Positions 3,123-47,752 of a stretch of DNA of 64,000 nt are shown one piece after another; position 1 is the stretch's first letter, and every line of letters starts with the position of its first letter. Location of the stretch: sequence record MT129654.1; one strand, 5' to 3'. This DNA comes from Escherichia phage MN04. Position numbers and translations under genes: made by a program. Below the pieces are notes generated by a model that was not told the DNA's origin, made no database searches, and saw nothing but the letters and a program-made list of their open reading frames with translations.

Positions 3123-3419
3123 ATGTACTATGCATACGTATTAGTTCACAAGGACAAAGATGGGTATGAAATTCCATTAGAAGATGCCGGTGAAGTGACT
3201 TTGTATTCGACAAAGATTGGAGCCGACACTGCTTTAGAGGCTTATGAAATCTCAACAAAAAGATATCTTCGGCTTGGACGCCTTGAAACAGTGTGCACGC
3301 CAAGAAAGTGGTGGTTTGATAAGTGGGAAACTAAAACGGTTTTTCCTACCAAAGAACGGGCCCGAGAATTAAAATTGATTTTAGACACTTTATATGTTAA
3401 GCGAGTAAAATTGGCATGA
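3123..3419 (+). CDS. Hypothetical protein (dda.1 position)
   Basis: ATG at 3123 (track starts at GTG 3120); stop overlaps dda start. Confidence 0.4.
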   Translation: MYYAYVLVHKDKDGYEIPLEDAGEVTLYSTKIGADTALEAYEISTKRYLRLGRLETVCTPRKWWFDKWETKTVFPTKERARELKLILDTLYVKRVKLA

Positions 3420-4747
3420 TTACATTTGAAGACTTGAATATTGGGCAACGGACGGCCTTTAAAGAAATCATTGAAGCTATTAAACGACGTAAGGGCGAAT
3501 GGATTACATTGAATGGTCCTGCTGGTACAGGTAAAACGACCCTTACTAAATTTATCCTTGACCACTTAGTCAAGAATGGCGAACTCGGAGTTATTTTGAC
3601 CGCACCTACACACGCGGCCAAGAAGGTATTGTCGAAACTCGCAGGCCAAGAAGCATCGACAATCCACCGAATCTTAAAGATTAACCCGACTACATACGAA
3701 GACCAGGATATTTTTGAACAACGTGAAGCTCCTGACTTGAGCAAATGTAATGTTCTTGTGGTCGACGAAGGCTCAATGATTGACGGTAAGTTGTTTAAGA
3801 TTATCGAAGCTTCAGTTCCGCCATGGTGCACTGTACTGGGGATTGGCGACCGAGCTCAGTTACAACCTGTAGAACCAGGAAGTGATGGAAGTCCTCAGTT
3901 GTCTCCATTCTTTACCCATCCTAAAATTAAACAGCTACACCTTACTGAAGTAATGCGTAGTAATGCTCCTATCATTGAGGTTGCTACTGAAATCCGTAAT
4001 GGTGGATGGTTCCGAGATTGTATATTCGAAGGTCACGGTGTCCATGGTTTTAAATCTCAAACGGCTTTAAAAGATTTTATGATGAATTATTTTTCCATCG
4101 TAAAAGATGCTGATGCCTTGTTTGAGAACAGGATGTTTGCTTATACAAATAAATCAGTTGAAAAACTGAATAGCATTATTCGTAAAAAGCTTTATGAAAC
4201 CGATACGCCTTATATCAAGGGCGAAATCCTCGTGATGCAAGAGCCTTTTATTAAGGAACTTGAATACGACGGTAAGAAATTCTCTGAAACCATTTTTAAT
4301 AACGGCCAGATGGTTCGTATTTTAGATGTGAACCACACCTCATTGTTCTTGTCTGCCAAGGATGTAGGCACTCGCCAGATGATTAATTACTGGGACCTCC
4401 AGGTTGAATCTGTTGATGAGGATGACGAGTACTATGTAGAACACTTGAAAGTTATTGATGAGGCTTCAGTTGAGAAGTTCCATTATTTCTTGGCTAAGGT
4501 GGCTACTGAGTACAAGGCTATGCGTGGAACAGGTAAGAAACCTAAGTGGGCTGATTTCTGGAAAGCTAAGAGAATGTTCACTAAGGTTCGAGCTCTTCCG
4601 GTGAGCACTGTCCATAAATCACAGGGTCTTACTGTCCAAAACAGTTTCATCTATACTCCGTGCATGCACATGGCAGATGCCAATTTAGCTTCACAGCTGG
4701 CTTATGTTAGTATTACCCGTGCTCGCACTGATGCCTATTATGTTTGA
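3416..4747 (+). CDS. dda: Dda DNA helicase (SF1B)
   Basis: 443 aa; Walker A GPAGTGKTT; long stretches matching T4 Dda as remembered (LTAPTHAAKK, PWCT..GIGD, TPCMH); dda.1-dda-dexA synteny. Confidence 0.95.
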   Translation: MITFEDLNIGQRTAFKEIIEAIKRRKGEWITLNGPAGTGKTTLTKFILDHLVKNGELGVILTAPTHAAKKVLSKLAGQEASTIHRILKINPTTYEDQDIFEQREAPDLSKCNVLVVDEGSMIDGKLFKIIEASVPPWCTVLGIGDRAQLQPVEPGSDGSPQLSPFFTHPKIKQLHLTEVMRSNAPIIEVATEIRNGGWFRDCIFEGHGVHGFKSQTALKDFMMNYFSIVKDADALFENRMFAYTNKSVEKLNSIIRKKLYETDTPYIKGEILVMQEPFIKELEYDGKKFSETIFNNGQMVRILDVNHTSLFLSAKDVGTRQMINYWDLQVESVDEDDEYYVEHLKVIDEASVEKFHYFLAKVATEYKAMRGTGKKPKWADFWKAKRMFTKVRALPVSTVHKSQGLTVQNSFIYTPCMHMADANLASQLAYVSITRARTDAYYV

Positions 4748-4754
4748 GGAAAAT

Positions 4755-4994
4755 ATGATTAAAGTAACTAAAGACCAATTTTATAAGTTGAAATTCGAGA
4801 CGGAATATATTATTAAGGTCAACCCAGACGATACAAATATCCGTGGCAAGGCTCATAAGGTCTTGCATTCACTTAAAGAGATTGAAAGTGATTTTATTGC
4901 AGTGCAAAAACTGATGGACGACAATATCTCTTCGGTTTATATTGAAGACTATACTGTTGGCCAAATCCGAGACCTTATGAGGTACGTTAAATGA
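4755..4994 (+). CDS. Hypothetical protein (dexA.1/dexA.2 position)
   Basis: 79-aa ORF from ATG 4755 with SD ggagg-like (tgaggaaaat) upstream; stop overlaps dexA start. Confidence 0.4.
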   Translation: MIKVTKDQFYKLKFETEYIIKVNPDDTNIRGKAHKVLHSLKEIESDFIAVQKLMDDNISSVYIEDYTVGQIRDLMRYVK

Positions 4995-5665
4995 AAGATA
5001 TAATTATTGACTTCGAAACCTTTGCCACTACCCAAAATGCAGCAGTTATCGACCTCGCCGTAATTGCTTATGACCCTAATCCAGAGGTAGTAGAATCGTT
5101 TGAAGAGCTTACTCAACGCGGTCTTCGTATTAAATTTGATTTGGCTTCTCAACGCGATAAACGTCTGTTCTCTAAAAGCACATTGCAGTGGTGGAAAGAA
5201 CAAGGACCTGAAGCACGTAAAAACCTGGCTCCGTCCGAAATTGATGTGAGTACTTCTATCGGCATTGGTAATTTCCTGGAATACTGCCGTAAAAACGAAG
5301 TGGACCAATGGAAATCCCAGATGTGGTGCCGCGGAATGTCCTTTGACTTTCCGATCTTAGTCGACCTTATTCGTGATGCTTATCGTTCTGAAGGTGTTCC
5401 TGAGAACGAAATCGATACAACTAAGTTGGAACCGGTTAAATTCTGGAACCAACGTGATATCCGCACGGCCATTGAAGCCTATTCACTGACGCGTGGATTA
5501 AGCATGTGCCCTCTGCCTAACGGAACATTGAATGGCTTTGTAGCCCATGACTCTATCCATGACTGTGCTAAGGATATCTTGATGCTGAAATATGCCCAAC
5601 GATATGCTTTAAACCTGGAAGATGTTCCTGAGAATCCAGACCCATTAAGTGTAAAAAATCGATAA
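4991..5665 (+). CDS. dexA: Exonuclease A (DnaQ-like 3'-5' exonuclease)
   Basis: 224 aa; N-terminal MKDIIIDFETFATT exo motif I (D-x-E); size and position match T4 DexA. Confidence 0.85.
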   Translation: MKDIIIDFETFATTQNAAVIDLAVIAYDPNPEVVESFEELTQRGLRIKFDLASQRDKRLFSKSTLQWWKEQGPEARKNLAPSEIDVSTSIGIGNFLEYCRKNEVDQWKSQMWCRGMSFDFPILVDLIRDAYRSEGVPENEIDTTKLEPVKFWNQRDIRTAIEAYSLTRGLSMCPLPNGTLNGFVAHDSIHDCAKDILMLKYAQRYALNLEDVPENPDPLSVKNR

Positions 5666-5669
5666 AAGT

Positions 5670-5698
5670 GTTTACTTCTCCTCATGACATGATATTAT
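5670..5698 (+). promoter_or_regulatory. T4-type early promoter embedded in an 11-bp inverted repeat
   Basis: GTTTAC 5670-5675, TATTAT 5693-5698; arms ttctcctcatg (5676-5686) and catgaggagaa (5711-5721) bracket the -10 and the SD. Confidence 0.6.
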
Positions 5699-5725
5699 CT
5701 ACCCTATCAACATGAGGAGAACAAA

Positions 5726-6229
5726 ATGAAAATTTATCGAGTTGAGTCATCGTTCAGTATCTTAGATGATGGAAACGCTATCACAATACGACGAGACCTC
5801 TGTACTCAAATGACTCCGTATAGAAGTACAATGGACTCATGGAGTGAAGGCTGGTTATTGGAAGTAGGTTTCGACAGACCCAATTTTAAGCATCGTCATA
5901 CCATCAATAAAAATATTCCACTACCAAGTCAAGATAAGTTGCTGGTAGAAAATTCTAATAAAACCATTAGAACTAAGTGGAAACGGCCTGATTATGAAGA
6001 CTGTGATGATTATATTCCAGGTTGGTTTGTTAACCTCTACCATTTTGCTTTTGCCAGTGAGTATGATATGATGCGCTGGTTCACTCGTGAAGAGCGTAAA
6101 GAATTATCTTCTAAAGGATTCTATCTTGCCGTTTACGAAATACCTGAAGATGAGGTAGTCATTGGTGACCGCCAAGTAATGTTCCGCAAGTCCCATGCTG
6201 AACTCGTAGATTTTATTGAAATGAGATAA
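5726..6229 (+). CDS. Hypothetical early protein (MotB position by synteny)
   Basis: 167 aa, similar size to T4 MotB (162 aa); position dexA -> motB; no motif evidence. Confidence 0.4.
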   Translation: MKIYRVESSFSILDDGNAITIRRDLCTQMTPYRSTMDSWSEGWLLEVGFDRPNFKHRHTINKNIPLPSQDKLLVENSNKTIRTKWKRPDYEDCDDYIPGWFVNLYHFAFASEYDMMRWFTREERKELSSKGFYLAVYEIPEDEVVIGDRQVMFRKSHAELVDFIEMR

Positions 6230-6231
6230 TT

Positions 6232-6783
6232 ATGAAATTTAATTATAATCCCAAATACACACCGAACCCGGCGGCCAAATTGATTGATTTTGATGTTTTA
6301 AGCACTTATGCAGCCCCTATTGAACCATTAGAAATTAAGGAAACCACTATGACTACTCAGACTATCGAAATCGGTAAAACCTACAAACTGGTTGAACCTG
6401 AAATTAAAACTAAGGCCTTGATTTCTGGTTATAAAACTCTGACTGATGTTTTTGGCGAAGGCGAATTTATTGTTGAAGAATTCGCTAAAAGTGAGTGGTT
6501 TGACAAATCTTACGTCATCCACGGTCGCCGGTTAGATAATAACAAAATAGAGAAAAACCTGGTTTATGAAGATGAATTTGGGCTTTTCCGTGAAGTCGGA
6601 GTCGAACAAGACCCTACAGACCTGTTGTGTGCTGCTGTGGCTATCCGTCGTCCTTTTGATAATCCTATCTGTGGTTGGGTAACAGACCAGTGGATTGAAG
6701 ATGGTGTTGAACTCCTGAACGTTGTACATGCTGGTGATTTTAGCGTAGTACCTCGTAGTGCAGTGGTTAATGTATTGAATTAA
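6232..6783 (+). CDS. Hypothetical protein, paralog A of a tandem pair
   Basis: 183 aa; C-terminal block GWVTDQWIEDGVELLNVVHAGDFSVVP shared with the next ORF. Confidence 0.5.
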   Translation: MKFNYNPKYTPNPAAKLIDFDVLSTYAAPIEPLEIKETTMTTQTIEIGKTYKLVEPEIKTKALISGYKTLTDVFGEGEFIVEEFAKSEWFDKSYVIHGRRLDNNKIEKNLVYEDEFGLFREVGVEQDPTDLLCAAVAIRRPFDNPICGWVTDQWIEDGVELLNVVHAGDFSVVPRSAVVNVLN

Positions 6784-8798: not shown

Positions 8799-10616
8799 AT
8801 GATTAAGAATGAAATTAAAGTACTGTCCGACATTGAACATATCAAAAAACGTAGTGGGATGTATATTGGCTCAAGTGCTAATGAAGCTCACGGTCGATTC
8901 CTGTTTGGTAATTTTACCCAGGTGAACTATGTTCCAGGGCTAGTTAAATTAATTGACGAAATCATTGATAACTCTGTCGATGAAGCTATTCGTACCAATT
9001 TTAAATTTGCAAATAAAATCGATGTTCAAATTAAGAATAATCAGGTTTCAGTTTCTGATAATGGCCGTGGTATTCCTCAAGCAATGGTTACCGACCAAAA
9101 CGGTGAACAAATTCCGGGCCCTGTAGCTGCATGGACTATTCCAAAGGCCGGTGGTAACTTTGGAGATGACGCCGAGCGTAAAACAGGCGGCATGAACGGT
9201 GTTGGTAGTAGTTTAACTAATATCTTCTCTGTTTTGTTCACAGGCATCACCTCTGATGGTGAGAATGAGATTACTGTTAACTGTTCCAACGGAATGGAAA
9301 ACAAAGGTTGGTCTACTAAGAAATCTAAAGGTAAGGGTACTTCGGTTATATTCACCCCAGACTTTAACCATTTCGAAGAAAATAGTCTGTCCCAAATTTA
9401 TCTGGATATTACATTAGACCGTCTTCAAACACTGGCCGTAATTTATCCAGATATCCAATTTACTTTTAATGGTAAAAAAGTAGATGGCAACTTTAAAAAG
9501 TATGCTAAGCAATTTGGTGAAGACTTTGTAATCCAAGAAACCGATAATGTTTCGATGGCATTTACTCCTTCTCCGGACGGGTTCCGTCAACTGACGTATG
9601 TAAACAATATCCATACTAAGAACGGTGGTCACCACGTTGAATGTGTGTTTGATGATATCTGTGAGCACCTTCTGCCTGGTATTAAAAAGAAATATAAAGG
9701 AATCGAAGTAACTAAGGCTCGTGTTAAAGAATGCCTTACTATGGTAATGTTCATTCGTGATATGAGCAATATGCGTTTTGATTCGCAGACTAAAGAGCGA
9801 TTAACCTCTCCGTTTGGCGAGATTCGTAACCATATCCAAATTGATGCTAAGAAAATTGCAACGGCTATTCTTAAGGTCGATGGGTTGATTATGCCTATCG
9901 TCGAAGCCGCTTTAGCACGTAAACTCGCTGCCGAAAAAGCCGCCGAAACAAAAGCTGCTAAGAAAGCTTTGAAAGCCAAGGTCCATAAGCATATTAAAGC
10001 CAATATGTATGGCAAAGATGCTGATACGACTTTATTCCTTACGGAAGGTGATTCTGCAATGGGTCCTTTCATTGAAGTTCGTAATAAAGACCTCCAAGGT
10101 GGTTATCCGTTACGCGGAAAGGTTATGAATACCTGGGGTATGACTGCTGCTGATATCATGAAGAACAAAGAATTGTTTGATATCTGTGCAATCACTGGAC
10201 TGGTTATTGGTGAACCTGCAGATAAAACCAACTATCGTAATATCGCTATCATGACTGACGCCGATGTGGATGGTACTGGTTCGATTTATCCTTCGTTATT
10301 AGCTTTCTTTAGTCAGTGGCCGGAATTGTTTGAACAGGGACGAATTCGTTTCTGTAAGACTCCTGTAATCATTGCTCAGGTTGGTAAAGAACAGGAATGG
10401 TTCTATGATGTACCTAGTTATACCAAAGCTAAGGACTCTCTACCAAAACATTCCATTCGATATATTAAAGGTTTAGGTTCTCTTGAGAAAGCTGAATATC
10501 GTCGAATGATTCAAGACCCTAAATTTGATGTGGTTCAATTACCTGAAGATTGGAAAGAACAGTTCGAAATGCTCCTAGGGAATGACCCACAGCTGCGTAA
10601 GGCTTGGATGTCATAA
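8799..10616 (+). CDS. 39: DNA topoisomerase II large (ATPase) subunit, single fused 39/60-type ORF
   Basis: 605 aa; GHKL ATPase motif DNGRGIP, Toprim EGDSA; uninterrupted, unlike T4 where the C-terminal part is the separate gene 60. Confidence 0.9.
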   Translation: MIKNEIKVLSDIEHIKKRSGMYIGSSANEAHGRFLFGNFTQVNYVPGLVKLIDEIIDNSVDEAIRTNFKFANKIDVQIKNNQVSVSDNGRGIPQAMVTDQNGEQIPGPVAAWTIPKAGGNFGDDAERKTGGMNGVGSSLTNIFSVLFTGITSDGENEITVNCSNGMENKGWSTKKSKGKGTSVIFTPDFNHFEENSLSQIYLDITLDRLQTLAVIYPDIQFTFNGKKVDGNFKKYAKQFGEDFVIQETDNVSMAFTPSPDGFRQLTYVNNIHTKNGGHHVECVFDDICEHLLPGIKKKYKGIEVTKARVKECLTMVMFIRDMSNMRFDSQTKERLTSPFGEIRNHIQIDAKKIATAILKVDGLIMPIVEAALARKLAAEKAAETKAAKKALKAKVHKHIKANMYGKDADTTLFLTEGDSAMGPFIEVRNKDLQGGYPLRGKVMNTWGMTAADIMKNKELFDICAITGLVIGEPADKTNYRNIAIMTDADVDGTGSIYPSLLAFFSQWPELFEQGRIRFCKTPVIIAQVGKEQEWFYDVPSYTKAKDSLPKHSIRYIKGLGSLEKAEYRRMIQDPKFDVVQLPEDWKEQFEMLLGNDPQLRKAWMS

Positions 10617-10895: not shown

Positions 10896-11219
10896 ATGAT
10901 TATGCAAGATAATAGTATAGTGAACACTGGCAACTTGGCTTTGTCTTTTATGGAGACCGCAATTCGCAATTGTAAAGACGAAGGAGTAGTGATTACAAGC
11001 GGCAAGGGACTAGAATATCTCAAGGCTGTAAAATCTATTGCCTTAAAGATTAAAGATAACCAGGCGCTCTCTCCTGTTGTCCAGGAAAAGGTTCTAGAGA
11101 TATTGTATCGCCACAGAGAGCACAAAAGTACAATGGGTTCTATGAGAAGAATTCTGGCTGAACTAGGTTCTACCAGAGAATATGTTCAACATGAGGTAGT
11201 TAAAAATGACAAACTTTAA
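10896..11219 (+). CDS. Hypothetical protein (rIIA.1 position)
   Basis: 107-aa ORF immediately upstream of rIIA. Confidence 0.4.
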   Translation: MIMQDNSIVNTGNLALSFMETAIRNCKDEGVVITSGKGLEYLKAVKSIALKIKDNQALSPVVQEKVLEILYRHREHKSTMGSMRRILAELGSTREYVQHEVVKNDKL

Positions 11220-38474: not shown

Positions 38475-39595
<1,121 letters not shown>

Positions 39596-39596
<1 letters not shown>

Positions 39597-40459
39597 TGAA
39601 ACAATACCAATTTTTAATTAAAGATATCCTGGAAAATGGCTACGAAACCGACGACCGTACCGGCACCGGTACAATTGCACTGTTCGGTACTAAATTACGT
39701 TTTGATTTAACTAAAGGCTTTCCTGCAGTAACAACTAAAAAATTAGCATGGAAAGCCTGTATTGCTGAGCTCCTTTGGTTCCTTTCAGGTTCAACTAACG
39801 TTAACGACCTTCGTTTCCGTACTCACGGTTCATTAATTGACGGTAAAACTATTTGGGACGAGAATTATGAAAATCAGGCCAAAGATTTAGGTTATCATAG
39901 CGGTGAACTCGGTCCTGTATATGGGAAACAATGGCGAGATTTTGGTGGTGTCGACCAGGTTGTAGAAATCATCGACCGTATTAAAAAGATGCCTAATGAC
40001 CGACGTCAAATCGTATCTGCATGGAACCCGGCTGAAATCAACCAGATGGCTCTTCCACCATGTCATTGTTTTTATCAGTTCAACGTTCGTAACGGCCATC
40101 TTGACCTCCAGTGGTACCAACGTTCGGTTGACGTGTTCTTAGGATTGCCATTTAATATCGCCTCTTACGCCGCTCTTGTGCATATTGTAGCTAAGATGTG
40201 TAATCTTATTCCGGGTGATTTAGTGTTCTCAGGCGGCAATACGCACATCTATTCTAACCACGTTGAACAATGCCAAGAAGTATTGCGGCGTGAACCTAAA
40301 GAGCTTTGTGAACTGGAAATACGGTATTGGCATAAAGATTTCCATGAGTGGACAACAGAACAACAGTTGGCTTGGGTTACCGGAATGATGTATCCTGAAG
40401 ACTTCGTTCTTAAAGGTTACGAATCACACCCTACTATTAAGGCTAAAATGGCTGTATGA
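39596..40459 (+). CDS. td: Thymidylate synthase, uninterrupted (no group I intron)
   Basis: 287 aa from ATG 39596 (MKQYQ...); active-site region ALPPCHCFYQF; continuous ORF, whereas T4 td carries an intron. Confidence 0.95.
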
Positions 40460-40520
40460 AAATTCAAATAATCTGTACTCTATTTTTGGTTATTATGGTC
40501 GGACTGAATTTGGTGCTATA

Positions 40521-40814
40521 ATGAGAGTCTGTAGAGTTGTTAACAAGTATAAAGAAGATTTTGATGTCAATATCCAGCGTGGAACTATGTGGGGTAATCC
40601 ATTTAAAGACGGTACCCGCGAGGAAAACATCAAGAACTTTAAAGAATACTTTATTGCTAAAATAAAATCGGGTGAAATTAAAAGAGAACATCTTGAAACC
40701 CTTAGAGGTATGCGAATAGCGTGTACCTGTAAACCTAAGGACTGTCATGGGGATGTGATAGCCCTGGTTGTTAACAAACTTTTCAAAGATACGTTCTCAT
40801 TAGAAGACCTATAA
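40521..40814 (+). CDS. Hypothetical Cys/His-containing small protein
   Basis: 97 aa; GNPF motif and CTCKPKDCHGD; unassigned. Confidence 0.4.
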   Translation: MRVCRVVNKYKEDFDVNIQRGTMWGNPFKDGTREENIKNFKEYFIAKIKSGEIKREHLETLRGMRIACTCKPKDCHGDVIALVVNKLFKDTFSLEDL

Positions 40815-40880
40815 ATATCAGTCCATGCTTAACAGGTTCTATGATAGAATAATTGTAGAACCTAACATATTGAGGAAATT

Positions 40881-43136
40881 ATGCAAGTACAAAAGAGTAG
40901 TGGTGTATCCCAAGATTTTGACGCACAAAAAATTATTAAAGTTCTGACTTGGGGCTGTGAAGGAACCCAAATCGACCCCTATGAATTATACGAAGAAATC
41001 AAAACCCACCTTCGTGATGGTATGACTACCAAAGATATCCAAAATCTGACTGTTAAGGTAGCGGCCAACCTTATCTCGGTTGAAGAGCCTGACTATCAGT
41101 ATGTTGCTGCAAAGCAATTGATGTTTGCACTGCGTAAAGAAGTTTATGGCCAGTTCGAACCACGTAGTTTTATCGACCATATTTCCTATTGTGTTAACGA
41201 AGGTAAATATGACCCTGAATTGTTGTCTCGTTATTCTGCAGAAGAAATTACTTTCTTAGAATCTCATATCAAGCATGAACGCGATTTCGAATTGACTTAT
41301 GCTGGCGCAATGCAGCTGAAAGAGAAATATCTGGTTAAAGATAAAACAACCGGTAAAATCTACGAAACTCCTCAGTTCGCTATCATGTGTATTGGTATGG
41401 CCTTACACCAAGACGAGCCGGGTAACCGTTTAGCACATATTATTCGTTTTTATGACGCTGTAAGTACTCGTCAGGTTTCGTTGCCTACTCCTATTATGGC
41501 TGGTGCACGTACTCCAACCCGTCAATTTAGTTCTTGTGTTGTTATTGAAGCAGGTGACTCACTGAAATCTATTAACAAAACTGCAAACTCAATAATTGAA
41601 TACATTTCTAAACGTGCAGGTATTGGTATCAACGTTGGTATGATTCGTGCTGAAGGTTCTCGTATTGGCATGGGTGAAGTCAAACATACTGGTGTTATTC
41701 CGTTCTGGAAACATTTCCAGACTGCTGTTAAATCATGTTCACAAGGTGGAATCCGTGGCGGCGCTGCTACTGCTTATTATCCTATTTGGCATTTGGAAGT
41801 TGAAAATCTGCTCGTTCTGAAAAACAACAAAGGTGTCGATGAAAACCGTATTCGTCATATGGACTACGGAATCCAGTTGAATGACCTTATGATGGGACGT
41901 TTCGGTAAAAATGATTACATTACCCTGTTTAGTCCTCATGAAATGGGTGGTGAGCTTTATTATTCTTATTTTGAAGACCAAGAACGTTTCCGTGAATTGT
42001 ATGAAGCGGCTGAAAAAGACTCTAGTATTCGTAAGAAACGTATTAAAGCACGCGACCTCTTCGAATTGTTTATGACCGAACGTTCAGGCACTGCACGAAT
42101 TTATCCTCAGTTTGTTGATAACACTAACAACTTCACACCATTTATTCGTGAAAAGGCTCCTATTCGCCAGAGTAACCTGTGTTGTGAAATTGCTATCCCG
42201 ACTACCGATGTTAACAGTCCTGATGCTGAAATCGGGTTGTGTACTCTGTCTGCATTCGTATTGGATAACTTTGATTGGCAAGACCAAGACAAAATCAACG
42301 AACTTGCTGAAGTACAGGTACGTGCACTTGATAACTTGTTAGACTACCAAGATTATCCTGTTCCTGAAGCTTTGAAGGCTAAGAAACGTCGTAACCTTGG
42401 CGTGGGTGTTACTAACTACGCAGCATGGCTGGCAAGCAACTTTGCTTCTTATGAAGACGCAAACGATTTAACTCACGAACTGTTTGAGAGATTACAGTAT
42501 GGACTTATCCGAGCATCAATCAAGTTGGCCGAAGAAAAAGGACCTTGCGAGTATTATTCAGACACTAAATGGTCTCGAGGCGAGCTTCCTATCGACTGGT
42601 ACAATAAAAAGATTGACCAAATCGCAGCCCCAAACTATGTTTGTGACTGGTCGTCGTTGCGGGAAGACTTGGCTAAACATGGCATCCGTAATAGCACATT
42701 ATCAGCACTTATGCCATGCGAGTCAAGCAGCCAGGTTTCCAACTCTACCAACGGTATCGAACCTCCGCGTGGTCCAGTAAGTATTAAAGAATCTAAAGAA
42801 GGTAACTTCCGACAGGTAGTTCCTAATGTAGAACATAACCAAGGCCTTTATGATTATGCTTGGAGCCTCGCTAAGAAAGGTAATAAACCTTATCTTACCC
42901 AAGTAGCAATTATGTTGAAATGGGTTTGCCAATCAGCATCAGCGAATACGTATTACGACCCTCAGAATTATGAGAAAGGAAAAGTTCCTATGTCAGTAAT
43001 GCTTGATGACCTGTTATATTTCTGGTACTTTGGTGGTAAGAACCTTTACTATCATAACACCCGTGATGGCTCTGGTACTGACGATTATGAAATCGAAACT
43101 CCTAAAGCCGATGATTGCGCAGCTTGTAAGCTTTAA
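40881..43136 (+). CDS. nrdA: Ribonucleotide reductase large subunit
   Basis: 751 aa; class Ia RNR size and T4 synteny td -> nrdA -> nrdB. Confidence 0.92.
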   Translation: MQVQKSSGVSQDFDAQKIIKVLTWGCEGTQIDPYELYEEIKTHLRDGMTTKDIQNLTVKVAANLISVEEPDYQYVAAKQLMFALRKEVYGQFEPRSFIDHISYCVNEGKYDPELLSRYSAEEITFLESHIKHERDFELTYAGAMQLKEKYLVKDKTTGKIYETPQFAIMCIGMALHQDEPGNRLAHIIRFYDAVSTRQVSLPTPIMAGARTPTRQFSSCVVIEAGDSLKSINKTANSIIEYISKRAGIGINVGMIRAEGSRIGMGEVKHTGVIPFWKHFQTAVKSCSQGGIRGGAATAYYPIWHLEVENLLVLKNNKGVDENRIRHMDYGIQLNDLMMGRFGKNDYITLFSPHEMGGELYYSYFEDQERFRELYEAAEKDSSIRKKRIKARDLFELFMTERSGTARIYPQFVDNTNNFTPFIREKAPIRQSNLCCEIAIPTTDVNSPDAEIGLCTLSAFVLDNFDWQDQDKINELAEVQVRALDNLLDYQDYPVPEALKAKKRRNLGVGVTNYAAWLASNFASYEDANDLTHELFERLQYGLIRASIKLAEEKGPCEYYSDTKWSRGELPIDWYNKKIDQIAAPNYVCDWSSLREDLAKHGIRNSTLSALMPCESSSQVSNSTNGIEPPRGPVSIKESKEGNFRQVVPNVEHNQGLYDYAWSLAKKGNKPYLTQVAIMLKWVCQSASANTYYDPQNYEKGKVPMSVMLDDLLYFWYFGGKNLYYHNTRDGSGTDDYEIETPKADDCAACKL

Positions 43137-43189
43137 TAAAATCTGATTATAATTGACTCATGGATGAGTCACTAACAAATGAGAATAAC

Positions 43190-44329
43190 ATGTCTACAGT
43201 TTTTAATACTACCCCAGTTGATGTTTTAGTCGAACCGATGTTCTTTGGTTCAGGATTGGGTATTGCTCGTTACGATATCCAACGTCATAAAGTATTCGAA
43301 GAGCTTTGTGAAAAGCAGTTGAGTTTCTTCTGGCGTCCAGAGGAAGTTAACTTGATGATGGATGCTGCCCAGTTTAATAAGCTTCCACAATTCCAACAAA
43401 ATATTTTTACCAATAACCTGAAGTATCAATCACTTCTGGATAGTATCCAGGGACGTGCGCCGTCTGCTGCACTCCAAGCCTTGATTTCAGACCCTAGCCT
43501 TGATACTTGGGTGGCTACATGGACCTTTAGTGAAACCATTCACTCTCGTTCGTATACCCATATCATGCGTAACCTTTATACAGACCCATCTAAGGTATTT
43601 GATGAAATTCTGTTAGATGAAGCTATCATGAAACGTGCTGAATCTATTGGTCGTTATTATGATGATGTTATTGAGAAAACCAGACTTTACCAGAATGCCT
43701 TAGAAGAATATCATGAGTTTAGCGAAGGCGTAAAACAGGCCAAATACGAACTAATGCGCTCTCTTTACCTCTGCCTGCATGTAATCAATGCATTGGAAGC
43801 TATTCGTTTTTACGTATCTTTCGCATGCACCTTTAACTTCCATAAGAATATGGAAATCATGGAAGGTAATGCTAAGATTATGAAGTTCATTGCACGTGAT
43901 GAACAGCTTCACCTTAAAGGCACCCAATATATTATTCGTCAACTCCAGCTTGGTACTGATGGTGATGAATGGGTTAAAATTGCTCAAGAGTGCGAACAAG
44001 AAGCAGTTGATATTTTCATGGAAGTTAACCGACAAGAAAAAGAGTGGGCTGCGCACCTGTTCAAAGACGGTACTTGCCCTGGATTAAATACTCAGAACAT
44101 GGGTGCTTTTGTCGATTACCTGACAGTTTCTCGTATGAAGCAATGTGGCTTACCATGTCCTATTACTGATGCTCCTACTCGCCATCCATATCCTTGGATT
44201 CGCGAATACCTGAACTCTGATGCTGTACAGGCTGCTCCTCAGGAAGTGGAAATCAGTTCTTACCTTGTAGCACAAATTGATAATGATGTCGATGAAAAAG
44301 TAATGGCGTCATACAAGAAATATTTTTAA
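43190..44329 (+). CDS. nrdB: Ribonucleotide reductase small subunit, uninterrupted (no group I intron)
   Basis: ATG 43190 (MSTVFNT..., track starts at upstream ATG 43160); di-iron/tyrosyl radical protein class; continuous ORF. Confidence 0.92.
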   Translation: MSTVFNTTPVDVLVEPMFFGSGLGIARYDIQRHKVFEELCEKQLSFFWRPEEVNLMMDAAQFNKLPQFQQNIFTNNLKYQSLLDSIQGRAPSAALQALISDPSLDTWVATWTFSETIHSRSYTHIMRNLYTDPSKVFDEILLDEAIMKRAESIGRYYDDVIEKTRLYQNALEEYHEFSEGVKQAKYELMRSLYLCLHVINALEAIRFYVSFACTFNFHKNMEIMEGNAKIMKFIARDEQLHLKGTQYIIRQLQLGTDGDEWVKIAQECEQEAVDIFMEVNRQEKEWAAHLFKDGTCPGLNTQNMGAFVDYLTVSRMKQCGLPCPITDAPTRHPYPWIREYLNSDAVQAAPQEVEISSYLVAQIDNDVDEKVMASYKKYF

Positions 44330-44356
44330 GGAATGGGGCTTCGGCCCCTTATTGCT

Positions 44357-44770
44357 ATGAAAGAAATCGCAGATGAATTTAGCTTTATCAAGTACGTTAC
44401 ACTGGAGCTCCAAACAGATGCTACTATAGCCCCTATCACGGTTCCAAACAAACAAAATGTCATATATGCTATAGCGGTTGATGATATACTAGTCTACATC
44501 GGGAAGACTAAAAATCTTCGTAAGCGCATCAACTACTACCGAACAGCTATTAATCGTAAGGACCAAACGTCGGATTCGACCAAGTCCATTCTGATTCATG
44601 AAGCATTAATGGCTGGTAAAAAGGTAGAGTTCTATGCTAGACAGTGCTTTAATCTGTCGATGACTAACGAACTTGGAACTATGTCAGTTGAGACCATGTC
44701 TCTTGAAGAGCCAATGTTCATAAAGAAATTTAATCCACCTTGGAATACCCAACATAGGATAAAGCAATGA
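44357..44770 (+). CDS. denA: Endonuclease II (GIY-YIG family)
   Basis: ATG 44357 (MKEIADEF...); VIYAIAVDDILVYIGKTKNLRKRINYYRTAINRKD GIY-YIG core matching T4 EndoII as remembered. Confidence 0.85.
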   Translation: MKEIADEFSFIKYVTLELQTDATIAPITVPNKQNVIYAIAVDDILVYIGKTKNLRKRINYYRTAINRKDQTSDSTKSILIHEALMAGKKVEFYARQCFNLSMTNELGTMSVETMSLEEPMFIKKFNPPWNTQHRIKQ

Positions 44771-45915
44771 TTGAATTATATGATAACTTGATGACTTTGG
44801 TTAAAAACTCGACTAAATCTAAGTTCTTCTTTAAAGACTTCCAGAGTGCTCTAGGAGTCAACTATCGCATCTTTAGTTATAACTATGCATCGTACAGCGA
44901 TTGGTTGGAAGACGGCGCGCTAGAGTGCCGAGGCATTATGTTTGAAATGGACGAGAACGGTCCTGTACGTATCGCTGCTCGTCCTATGCAAAAGTTCTTT
45001 AATCTCGATGAAAATCCATTGACTATTGGTTTGGATTTATCACAAGAAAATATCGACCTCGTAATGGCTAAGGAAGATGGTTCCTTGATTTCTACTTTCA
45101 TGGACAGACAATATCTTTCTGTTAAATCTAAAGGCTCTATCCATTCGTCGATGGTACATGATTCTTTACGTTTCCTTCGACTCCCTGAAAACGAGGCCTT
45201 CGCTGCTCGTTTAGAAGAAATTACTAAAGCAGGCTATACATGTAACCTCGAGTATGTTTCGCCTACTAACCGTATTGTGCTGGCTTACCAAGAAACAAAC
45301 CTTATCTTACTGAACGTTCGTAATAACGAAACGGGTGAGTATATCCCTTACGCTGAACTGTTTAAAGATGGCGCTCTGCGTAAGCATTTGGTTAAAAGCT
45401 ATGAACTCGCCGAAGGTGATTTTGTTGACAATATCCGTAAACAAGAGGGTATTGAAGGCTTTATCTTTGTACTTAAAGATGGCACGTTCTTTAAACTCAA
45501 AACCGCTTGGTATAGCGCACTGCATCATACCAAAGATTCCATTAACAATAACGAACGTTTATTTGAAGTTGTAGTGGCTGGTGGAACCGATGACCTCCGA
45601 GGTTTGTTCAGCACTGATTCATTTGCTATCGAGAAAATCAATGCATTTGAACGTACCCATTTAGACTACTTAGAACAGTCCTTGGCTTTGTTAGAAGCAG
45701 CATATTCCCAGCTCAAAGGCCGCGACCGTAAAGACTACGCTGTTACTGGTCAGTTAATCCTCAAAGACTTCCCAGGGCTGTTCTCTATTCTTATGCAGGC
45801 GTACGTAGACGGTATTAATTATGATACGGTCGTGGACCAGATTAACTCTGTGTTCTTGAAAAATCATAAGGCCCAAATCCCTGAAAAATATTTGAAAGAA
45901 ATTGTAATAGAGTAG
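44767..45915 (+). CDS. rnlA: RNA ligase 1
   Basis: 382 aa; YRIFSYNYASYSDW, adenylation site KEDGSL; matches T4 gp63 as remembered. Confidence 0.9.
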   Translation: MIELYDNLMTLVKNSTKSKFFFKDFQSALGVNYRIFSYNYASYSDWLEDGALECRGIMFEMDENGPVRIAARPMQKFFNLDENPLTIGLDLSQENIDLVMAKEDGSLISTFMDRQYLSVKSKGSIHSSMVHDSLRFLRLPENEAFAARLEEITKAGYTCNLEYVSPTNRIVLAYQETNLILLNVRNNETGEYIPYAELFKDGALRKHLVKSYELAEGDFVDNIRKQEGIEGFIFVLKDGTFFKLKTAWYSALHHTKDSINNNERLFEVVVAGGTDDLRGLFSTDSFAIEKINAFERTHLDYLEQSLALLEAAYSQLKGRDRKDYAVTGQLILKDFPGLFSILMQAYVDGINYDTVVDQINSVFLKNHKAQIPEKYLKEIVIE

Positions 45916-45943
45916 TTTACATCTCCTCATGATGTGTTAGTAT
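45915..45943 (+). promoter_or_regulatory. T4-type early promoter embedded in a 9-bp inverted repeat
   Basis: GTTTAC 45915-45920, TAGTAT 45938-45943; arms tctcctcat (45922-45930) / atgaggaga (45958-45966). Confidence 0.55.
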
Positions 45944-45973
45944 AGACTTACCAACTAATGAGGAGAAAACAAA

Positions 45974-46474
45974 ATGAATATGCAAATGATTACCAACGAA
46001 ATGGTTGTTAAAGCTTTTGGTGACTCTACTGACGGTATCCAAGTTTTTAAAGGTTCTCGTGCAGTAGGTTATCTAACCGATCTTCGTGTTACTTTAGCTA
46101 AAAATGCTAAAAAGAAAATTAAGCAAAAAGAATACTCTACCCGTTATGCAGAAGAAAAGCGTGAAGCCATGCCCGAAGCTGTTAACTCTATGGTTGAGTT
46201 TCTCCAAAACAACCTTTCTAAGTATGATGCTGAGGTATTCATTAATATTAGCCAACCTAATGTCAAAATCGCAGGAATCACTTTCTATTTGATTTGCGAC
46301 CCATTAAGCGATAAGTTTAATCGCCTTGGCATTTCGAGCCCTTACCATACCGCTGAAGAATTGTGCGTGATGTTCGAAACGTATAAAATCCAGTGTGAAA
46401 ACCCTAAAACGGTTCTTATCAACTCCCTGTCACGTGATGACATCATCGAGATTATTACTAAATGTCTAAATTAA
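45974..46474 (+). CDS. Hypothetical protein (Alc position by synteny; T4 Alc is 167 aa)
   Basis: 166-aa ORF immediately downstream of rnlA. Confidence 0.45.
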   Translation: MNMQMITNEMVVKAFGDSTDGIQVFKGSRAVGYLTDLRVTLAKNAKKKIKQKEYSTRYAEEKREAMPEAVNSMVEFLQNNLSKYDAEVFINISQPNVKIAGITFYLICDPLSDKFNRLGISSPYHTAEELCVMFETYKIQCENPKTVLINSLSRDDIIEIITKCLN

Positions 46475-47205: not shown

Positions 47206-47235
47206 GTTTACAAACTCTTGGGAGCAGAGTATAAT
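47206..47235 (+). promoter_or_regulatory. T4-type early promoter
   Basis: GTTTAC 47206-47211, 18-nt spacer, TATAAT 47230-47235. Confidence 0.55.
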
Positions 47236-47269
47236 GCTCCTACGGATTATAAAAATTGAGGAAATTATT

Positions 47270-47748
47270 ATGACTTTACGTGATAACAGTTTTGTAGCTA
47301 AGCCTGAATACATTTCAGGTGTTAAATCGCCCGCATTACAAAAGCTCCTAAAACTAGGGTCCTGTGCAAGTACACCACTTGAAAAGAAGGCAACTTTCGA
47401 TTTTGCTTGGGCTATTGTGGACGGTATTGATGTAGTAAGACAGGTAACTTTTTATGCTCCAGGGTCTATTGAGCCTTCGCAGATTATTAATTTGAATGGA
47501 AGTAATTATATTACCATCCAACAGTGGTATCGTATGATGCGCCCAGTTTGGGAATACCCTGAATTCATTGAAGAGTACAATGAAAAAGAACGTATTCGTG
47601 AATTGGTGAAAAGTTTTGAATACGCGGCTAAACGCCATGGCCAAATGCAATCCGCAGTAACTCTCGGCGATGTTCCTGAAAGTGTTGCTTATGAATCCGG
47701 TAAAACCCTTAAAACCTGCCGTGAAGAACTTTATAAGGAGCTTGGTGT

Positions 47749-47752
<4 letters not shown>
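47270..47752 (+). CDS. Hypothetical protein
   Basis: 160-aa ORF from ATG 47270 preceded by ttgaggaaattattatg. Confidence 0.45.

Follow-up and report, generated by a model that had tools for sequence, protein, structure and literature searches.

Escherichia phage MN04 carries the uninterrupted, element-free nrdA-nrdB arrangement of JS98-like Dhakaviruses

The 64,000-nucleotide (nt) stretch of Escherichia phage MN04 analyzed here (sequence record MT129654.1; hereafter the window) carries nrdA and nrdB, the genes for the large and the small subunit of a class Ia ribonucleotide reductase, side by side, each uninterrupted and with no homing endonuclease gene between them. A sequence-only reading of the window had contrasted this with phage T4, which has mobE between the two genes and an I-TevIII-containing intron in nrdB; the T4 record bears this out and shows nrdB.1 after mobE, an intron length of 598 nt, and a truncated I-TevIII. 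We judge it very likely (probability about 0.93) that the window holds a plain, never-occupied nrdA-nrdB arrangement in a JS98-like Dhakavirus, a lineage that no homing endonuclease gene or group I intron would have entered at this locus. JS98 and JS10 were previously scored as having no homing endonuclease genes (“None”, versus 15 in T4; Petrov et al., 2010, PMC2993671, Table 5) and are among the mobE-lacking comparators of Wilson and Edgell (PMC2790892, Methods and Fig. 8), so the element-free state is already known for phages of this type and our finding is real but ordinary. Its significance is correspondingly small: it confirms membership in the JS98-type group and identifies T4 as an unusually element-rich reference.

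The gene pair itself is well defined. nrdA occupies positions 40881-43136 of the plus strand, encodes 751 amino acids, and ends in a double stop (TAATAA, 43134-43139) seen in both the open reading frame (ORF) table and the sequence. Its product matches the Pfam ATP-cone (PF03477), all-alpha (PF00317, Ribonuc_red_lgN), and barrel (PF02867, Ribonuc_red_lgC) domains at E values from 4e-14 to 1e-132, the strongest being that of the barrel. Directly downstream on the same strand, nrdB (43190-44329) encodes 379 amino acids that match Ribonuc_red_sm (PF00268, E 2e-38), and both the large and the small subunit of a T4-like class Ia ribonucleotide reductase are thereby represented in the window. Amino acid identity to JS98 is 99.7% for NrdA and likewise 99.7% for NrdB, and identity to T4 is 88.1% and 85.1%, respectively, the latter with the T4 exons joined. 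The sequence-only reading had placed the genes 23 to 53 nt apart, and its coordinates and spacing prove exact against the ORF table, the sequence, and the Pfam matches: the frame ending at 44329 has possible starts at 43160 and 43190, leaving a gap to nrdA of 23 or 53 nt. We rejected the ATG at 43160, which has no Shine-Dalgarno sequence, lies within the loop region of a hairpin described below, and is ACG in the Dhakavirus Bp7, and which the relatives do not use, their proteins beginning MSTVF. NrdB of T4, T2, and JS98 all start with MSTVFNT at an ATG homologous to 43190; by this comparative evidence the true start is the ATG at 43190 (MSTVFNT...), which sets the nrdA-nrdB spacer at 53 nt.

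Alignment to T4 nrdA and nrdB, the check that the sequence-only reading had proposed, takes the window across both T4 insertion points without a gap, following T4 nrdA to its stop codon, then nrdB from its start, and then passing through the T4 splice junction. That nrdB is uninterrupted, as had been claimed, is borne out by one continuous ORF that aligns straight through the splice junctions of both T4 and Bp7. The same reading had named degenerate endonuclease ORF remnants as the observation that would count against it, and tblastn and blastn find none in the window, while the remnant used as a positive control, in Klebsiella phage Marfa, was detected. In tblastn searches of the whole window with T4 MobE, NrdB.1, I-TevI, the I-TevIII fragment, SegG, the MobA fragment, and gp60.1, together with the full-length proteins I-TevIII of Bp7 and MobE of T6, no element scored better than E 0.29, and the control gene nrdA.1 was found at E 2e-42. 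No ORF of the MobE type (HNH with NUMOD3) lies between nrdA and nrdB, since T4 MobE, NrdB.1, and T6 MobE have no tblastn match in the window better than E 0.87. When the T4 td and nrdB introns, the Bp7 intron, and the T4 nrdA-nrdB insert were compared with the window by blastn, only chance matches were returned. A search of positions 38500-46000 against Rfam in E-value mode gave nothing at E up to 1, the same settings recovering both T4 introns (E 9e-8 and 2e-6), and nrdB has no group I intron with I-TevIII after the codons for ...SFAC. Pfam assigned no nuclease domain to ten unnamed ORFs of the window, including those in stretches that do not align to JS98, and we found no evidence against the absence of elements.

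Two further searches were set aside. Rfam at its gathering thresholds was empty for the window yet also missed the real T4 and Bp7 introns, which made it uninformative, and it was replaced by the E-value mode; a regular-expression scan of all stop-to-stop ORFs for GIY-YIG and HNH motifs returned nothing, not even DenA, and was discarded as too strict. The Marfa control shows what a remnant looks like in these searches: its 168-nt nrdA-nrdB spacer matches the T4 insert by blastn at E 3e-24 and the C-terminus of T6 MobE by tblastn at E 3e-9. The Marfa spacer (approximately 300-485 of the compared sequence) still has ~25 nt from the beginning and ~100 nt from the end of a gene of the mobE/nrdB.1 type. 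It represents a free-standing homing endonuclease gene in a naturally decayed state.

The sequence-only reading had also described td and gene 39 as free of elements, and both descriptions hold. The td gene (39584/39596-40459) is a single ORF that covers the Pfam thymidylate synthase model in full (1-266 of 266) and aligns across the T4 td splice junction. The equivalent of the I-TevI homing site lies at 40109-40170 on the plus strand, with the insertion point between 40144 and 40145; 47 of its 62 nt equal the intron-less T4 sequence, the encoded residues do not differ, and the CAACG cleavage motif is still present. A blastn-short search with the T4 td homing site gave no match to the window because of synonymous divergence, and it was a Smith-Waterman alignment that located the site. 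Gene 39 is one ORF of 605 amino acids (8799-10616, plus strand) corresponding to T4 gp39 and gp60 fused into an unsplit topoisomerase II large subunit, in which residues 1-474 correspond to T4 gp39 1-473 and residues 474-605 to T4 gp60 28-159; this locus has no mobA, no 60.1, and no bypass element. Genes 59 and 32 stand 89 nt apart with no segG between them. All five homing elements that T4 carries in the region syntenic with the window (mobA, segG, I-TevI, mobE, and I-TevIII) are absent.

Two small ORFs lie beside these loci, both in stretches that are unannotated in JS98. One, of 107 amino acids with a DUF7367 domain (10896-11219), lies in the interval from the fused gene 39 to rIIA.1/rIIA; in T4 this interval holds gene 60, 60.1, and mobA. 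The other, of 68 amino acids (39390-39596) and without a Pfam match, fills the gap between frd and td and overlaps both, and in T4 frd and td overlap directly.

Comparison with relatives places the window firmly among the JS98-like phages. A megablast search of 40500-44800 against GenBank phages returned JS98 at 98.1% identity over the full length, followed by JS10 and some 30 Dhakavirus genomes, and colinearity with JS98 extends through the full 64 kb, crossing the ends of that phage's record, with no insertion specific to the window; only the tail-fibre genes and a few replacements of ~300 nt align poorly. On this sequence evidence the window is that of a JS98-like Dhakavirus. JS98 and JS10 share with it the gene order nrdA.1-nrdA-nrdB-denA-rnlA, the absence of an endonuclease gene, and a spacer that is the same but for 1 nt; the differences amount to ~2% nucleotide divergence, an additional A in the run of A residues that follows the nrdA stop, and TGC versus TGT at position +2 of the intron site. 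T2, the experimentally characterized recipient of T4 mobE and the nrdB intron, resembles the window in its uninterrupted pair, its spacer of ~51 nt with the same hairpin after TATAAT, its AAG at codon 42, and its identical MobE nick site (nt 121-132), but it belongs to another genus, its nrdB has 82% nucleotide identity, its promoter lies nearer the nrdA stop, and its NrdB is 392 amino acids long because of a variable insert. T4 has homologous nrdA and nrdB (88% and 85% amino acid identity) and the same flanking genes (nrdA.1, td, denA, and rnlA), but differs in an insert of ~700 nt with mobE and nrdB.1 that starts from the nrdA stop, in the 598-nt group I intron after nrdB nt 664, in lacking the spacer hairpin, and in having its nrdB promoter inside the insert (PMC2790892). 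In T6 (387-1028 of the compared sequence) we observed a single MobE of 213 amino acids, with HNH and NUMOD3 domains, whose C-terminal third corresponds to T4 NrdB.1. Given this single T6 gene, T4 mobE (141 amino acids) and nrdB.1 (83 amino acids) look like two pieces of one ancestral gene.

Even samples of database records for T4-like phages show how common the empty arrangement is. From 1,144 records matching the junction we took an even sample of 60 rows, 53 of them informative, and nrdA and nrdB are contiguous in 38 of the 53 (~72%); the remaining 15 carry junction inserts, about half of which are annotated as homing endonucleases (T6, RB59, and others). A similar even sample for the intron site finds nrdB intron-less in 38 of 42 informative records (~90%). 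With most junctions and intron sites empty, the arrangement is the norm rather than a statistical oddity, and the contrast that the sequence-only reading implied by taking T4 as its reference is misleading, T4 being the unusual genome.

The nrdB site can nonetheless be invaded, because one Dhakavirus, Bp7, carries an intron of the T4 type there. Its 1,088-nt nrdB intron (4866-5953 of the compared Bp7 sequence) occupies the position homologous to that of T4, has splice junctions identical to those of T4, and encodes a full-length HNH I-TevIII of 268 amino acids (Pfam HNH_3). We compared alleles at sites for which five Dhakaviruses share a state that T4 lacks. Bp7 is Dhakavirus-type almost everywhere apart from a run of T4-type alleles at nt 564-636 of nrdB, which includes the cleavage site and lies immediately upstream of the insertion point; at the next informative site downstream, nt 684, Bp7 is Dhakavirus-type again. 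This pattern is the footprint expected of homing from a donor of the Tequatrovirus type with a short co-conversion tract, and it looks like a natural cross-genus event. The comparison thus offers a natural example of intron homing across genera in which the co-conversion tract has been mapped. Exon 1 of nrdB in the deposited Bp7 record contains a frameshift.

An empty site might also be one that was vacated. Under such a secondary loss, the lineage would once have had mobE, the nrdB intron, or both and lost them precisely, for instance by recombination with an element-free relative, leaving no scar. The sequence alone is compatible with a scarless, precise loss, mobE does degenerate or undergo deletion in nature, as the Marfa remnant illustrates, and the I-TevIII of T4 is itself truncated. 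We nevertheless disfavor this history and regard it as very improbable, because the window retains no remnant or scar, because nrdB around the insertion point has Dhakavirus-type alleles where an invaded copy, that of Bp7 for example, is marked by T4-type ones, and because the empty arrangement is found in nearly all Dhakavirus records among the top matches. The spacer, moreover, keeps a promoter-plus-hairpin layout common to other element-free genera, a layout that mobE displaces in T4 and T6. A locus that was never occupied therefore remains our preferred account.

A second alternative concerns why the locus is empty rather than when it became so, and proposes that synonymous differences at the target sites make it immune to MobE, I-TevIII, or I-TevI and not merely unoccupied. 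The sequence-only reading had spoken of empty target sites, which stands insofar as the targeted coding sequences are present but needs qualifying, as they differ synonymously from the characterized substrates. In favor of immunity, polymorphisms near the MobE nick site have been proposed to protect mobE-bearing genomes (PMC2790892). At the equivalent of the I-TevIII site and intron insertion point (43811-43849, plus strand; mapped from the T4 and Bp7 exon junctions, with insertion between 43826 and 43827, TTCGCAT before and GCACC after), the window differs from the intron-less T4 substrate only at -14, -5, -2, +2, and +23, all synonymous third positions. I-TevIII cleaves 14 and 16 base pairs (bp) upstream of the insertion point (geometry from PMC1865063), which puts the change at -14 at a cleavage position. 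At the td site, 15 of 62 positions depart from the I-TevI substrate, including 7 around the insertion site. Both sets of differences speak for the resistant-allele reading.

The MobE target points the other way. The nicks that MobE makes in T2 nrdB fall on the non-coding strand at nt 122-126; T2 and all phages without mobE read AAG at codon 42, mobE-bearing ones read CGG, CGA, AAA, or AAG, and the FFWRPEE-coding block next to the nick site is the proposed MobE binding site (Wilson and Edgell, PMC2790892). The equivalent stretch of the window (43311-43345, plus strand) contains the nick positions, codon 42 (43313-43315), and the FFWRPEE block (43325-43345), is identical to the experimentally nicked T2 sequence over nt 121-132, and reads AAG at codon 42, where T4 has CGG; by sequence it carries the MobE-susceptible nrdB allele as that study defines it, AAG beside the FFWRPEE block. 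Around the intron site, conservation exceeds that of nrdB as a whole (84-94% versus 80% identity to T4), and the target shows no excess of divergence; sequence variation is known to be tolerated by these enzymes (PMC2988022), and Bp7 was invaded at exactly this intron site. With a MobE site like that of T2 and an invaded copy in Bp7, we do not favor resistant alleles as the explanation and consider them unlikely. As nrdB retains the stretches that T4 MobE nicks and I-TevIII cleaves, the never-occupied locus would be a potential recipient in a mixed infection with an element-bearing phage, and MN04 would make a clean recipient for homing experiments with MobE, I-TevIII, I-TevI, MobA, and SegG.

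In place of a foreign gene, the 53-nt spacer would hold only expression signals for nrdB, namely a promoter-like element, a 7-bp hairpin, a short ribosome-binding site, and the ATG at 43190. The promoter-like element (43124-43153, plus strand) lies over the nrdA stop and matches the consensus at 10 of 12 positions, with TTGTAA at 43124-43129, an 18-nt spacer, and TATAAT at 43148-43153. It can alternatively be read as a MotA-box-like AAGCTTTA (43128-43135), formed by the last nrdA codons and the stop, followed by 12 nt and the -10 hexamer, and a layout of AAGCTTTA, 11-12 nt, and TATAAT recurs in Mosigvirus, Jiaodavirus, Gelderlandvirus, and Karamvirus. Directly after the -10 hexamer, a predicted hairpin (43154-43171, plus strand; TGACTCA-TGGA-TGAGTCA) has a stem of 7 bp and a YGGA loop and contains the rejected ATG at 43160. 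A Shine-Dalgarno-like GAGA (43181-43184, plus strand), conserved in Dhakaviruses, stands 5 nt upstream of the nrdB ATG. When eight distinct sequences representing seven genera are aligned, 89% of the cells of the hairpin alignment are paired and changes occur on both sides at 4 of the 7 pairs; not one of 500 shuffles attains that alignment's score, and every slid register falls far below it. These comparisons are suggestive of a hairpin kept, with compensatory changes, in seven T4-like phage genera. The hairpin is absent in T4 and T6, where mobE begins at the nrdA stop, and no description of it was found in the literature cited here.

Several points temper the case for these signals. The promoter is a consensus match only, and the region contains 14 such matches where 12.0 are expected from shuffles; the folding energy of the hairpin is by itself unremarkable (z -1.24); and the covariation comes from only eight sequences in an alignment anchored on the loop. 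With those caveats, two routes of nrdB transcription are probable, read-through from nrdA and initiation at this internal promoter, as in T4 and T2, and the hairpin would then lie at or near the 5' end of the internal nrdB transcript. Its position suggests either a 5'-terminal stem-loop on that transcript or an attenuator of nrdA read-through.

The spacer invites comparison with the promoter-early stem-loop (PeSL) cassettes of RB49- and phi1-type phages, of which one subclass has the stem-loop downstream of the -10 element (PMC2839356). In its sequence features it resembles them, with a sigma-70-like promoter, an adjacent stem-loop, and a Shine-Dalgarno sequence within a short intergenic spacer, and in some relatives the hairpin is immediately followed by extra genes, namely the Dam methylase of fDHCT2 and the small ORFs of Serratia phage 92A1 and Enterobacter phage UFV01. 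It differs in that the hairpin lacks the GGGG...CCCC motif typical of PeSLs, in that similar cassettes flanking variable ORFs do not form a repeated family here, the 64-kb window containing one copy and no second even with 3 mismatches allowed, and in that the fDHCT2 insert is not flanked by a second copy of the hairpin. This fDHCT2 insert (4181-4984 of the compared sequence), directly after the hairpin, has a 7-nt TAACAAA repeated at both ends. Because a Dam methylase or small ORFs follow the hairpin directly in different relatives, and mobE displaces it, we advance only tentatively, and as a rather doubtful proposition, that the promoter and hairpin form a regulatory cassette conserved across at least seven T4-like genera, which may stabilize or gate the internal nrdB transcript and may mark a preferred landing point for foreign genes. 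If this were true, the “empty” junction would amount to a defined platform open to repeated insertion and not to a mere gap; the conserved hairpin is in any case a small, testable regulatory lead.

Downstream of nrdB, a terminator-like hairpin (GGGGC-UUCG-GCCCC with a U-rich tail; 44335-44356, plus strand) was found by a terminator scan between nrdB and denA, and T4 and T2 have GGGCC-GCAA-GGCCC with a U-run in the same spot. Since this hairpin follows the nrdB stop and recurs in T4 and T2, the true start of denA is likely at 44357 (MKEIADEF), and the ORF of 145 amino acids from 44333 that is annotated in JS98 probably over-extends into the hairpin. In the window denA (ending at 44770) and rnlA (starting at 44767) overlap, with no insert. 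In two sister Dhakaviruses, IME281 (5803-6453 of the compared sequence) and phage 04086, an insert of ~645 nt separates denA from rnlA, at a point equivalent to 44754/44756 of the window, and contains an ORF of 216 amino acids whose N-terminus resembles GIY-YIG by eye (HYIYKIT...YYIGKRS), although Pfam gives no match. The split nrdA of 04086 (approximately 3210-3546) was considered as a mobile element and rejected, as it consists of a tandem duplication of 168 nt plus 1 nt (42209-42376 of the window) and is probably an assembly or sequencing artefact. Farther along the window, an ORF of 172 amino acids (47234-47752) without a Pfam match lies between the homologues of pseT.2 and orf217; it is unannotated in JS98 and falls partly within a stretch of ~320 nt that does not align to that phage.

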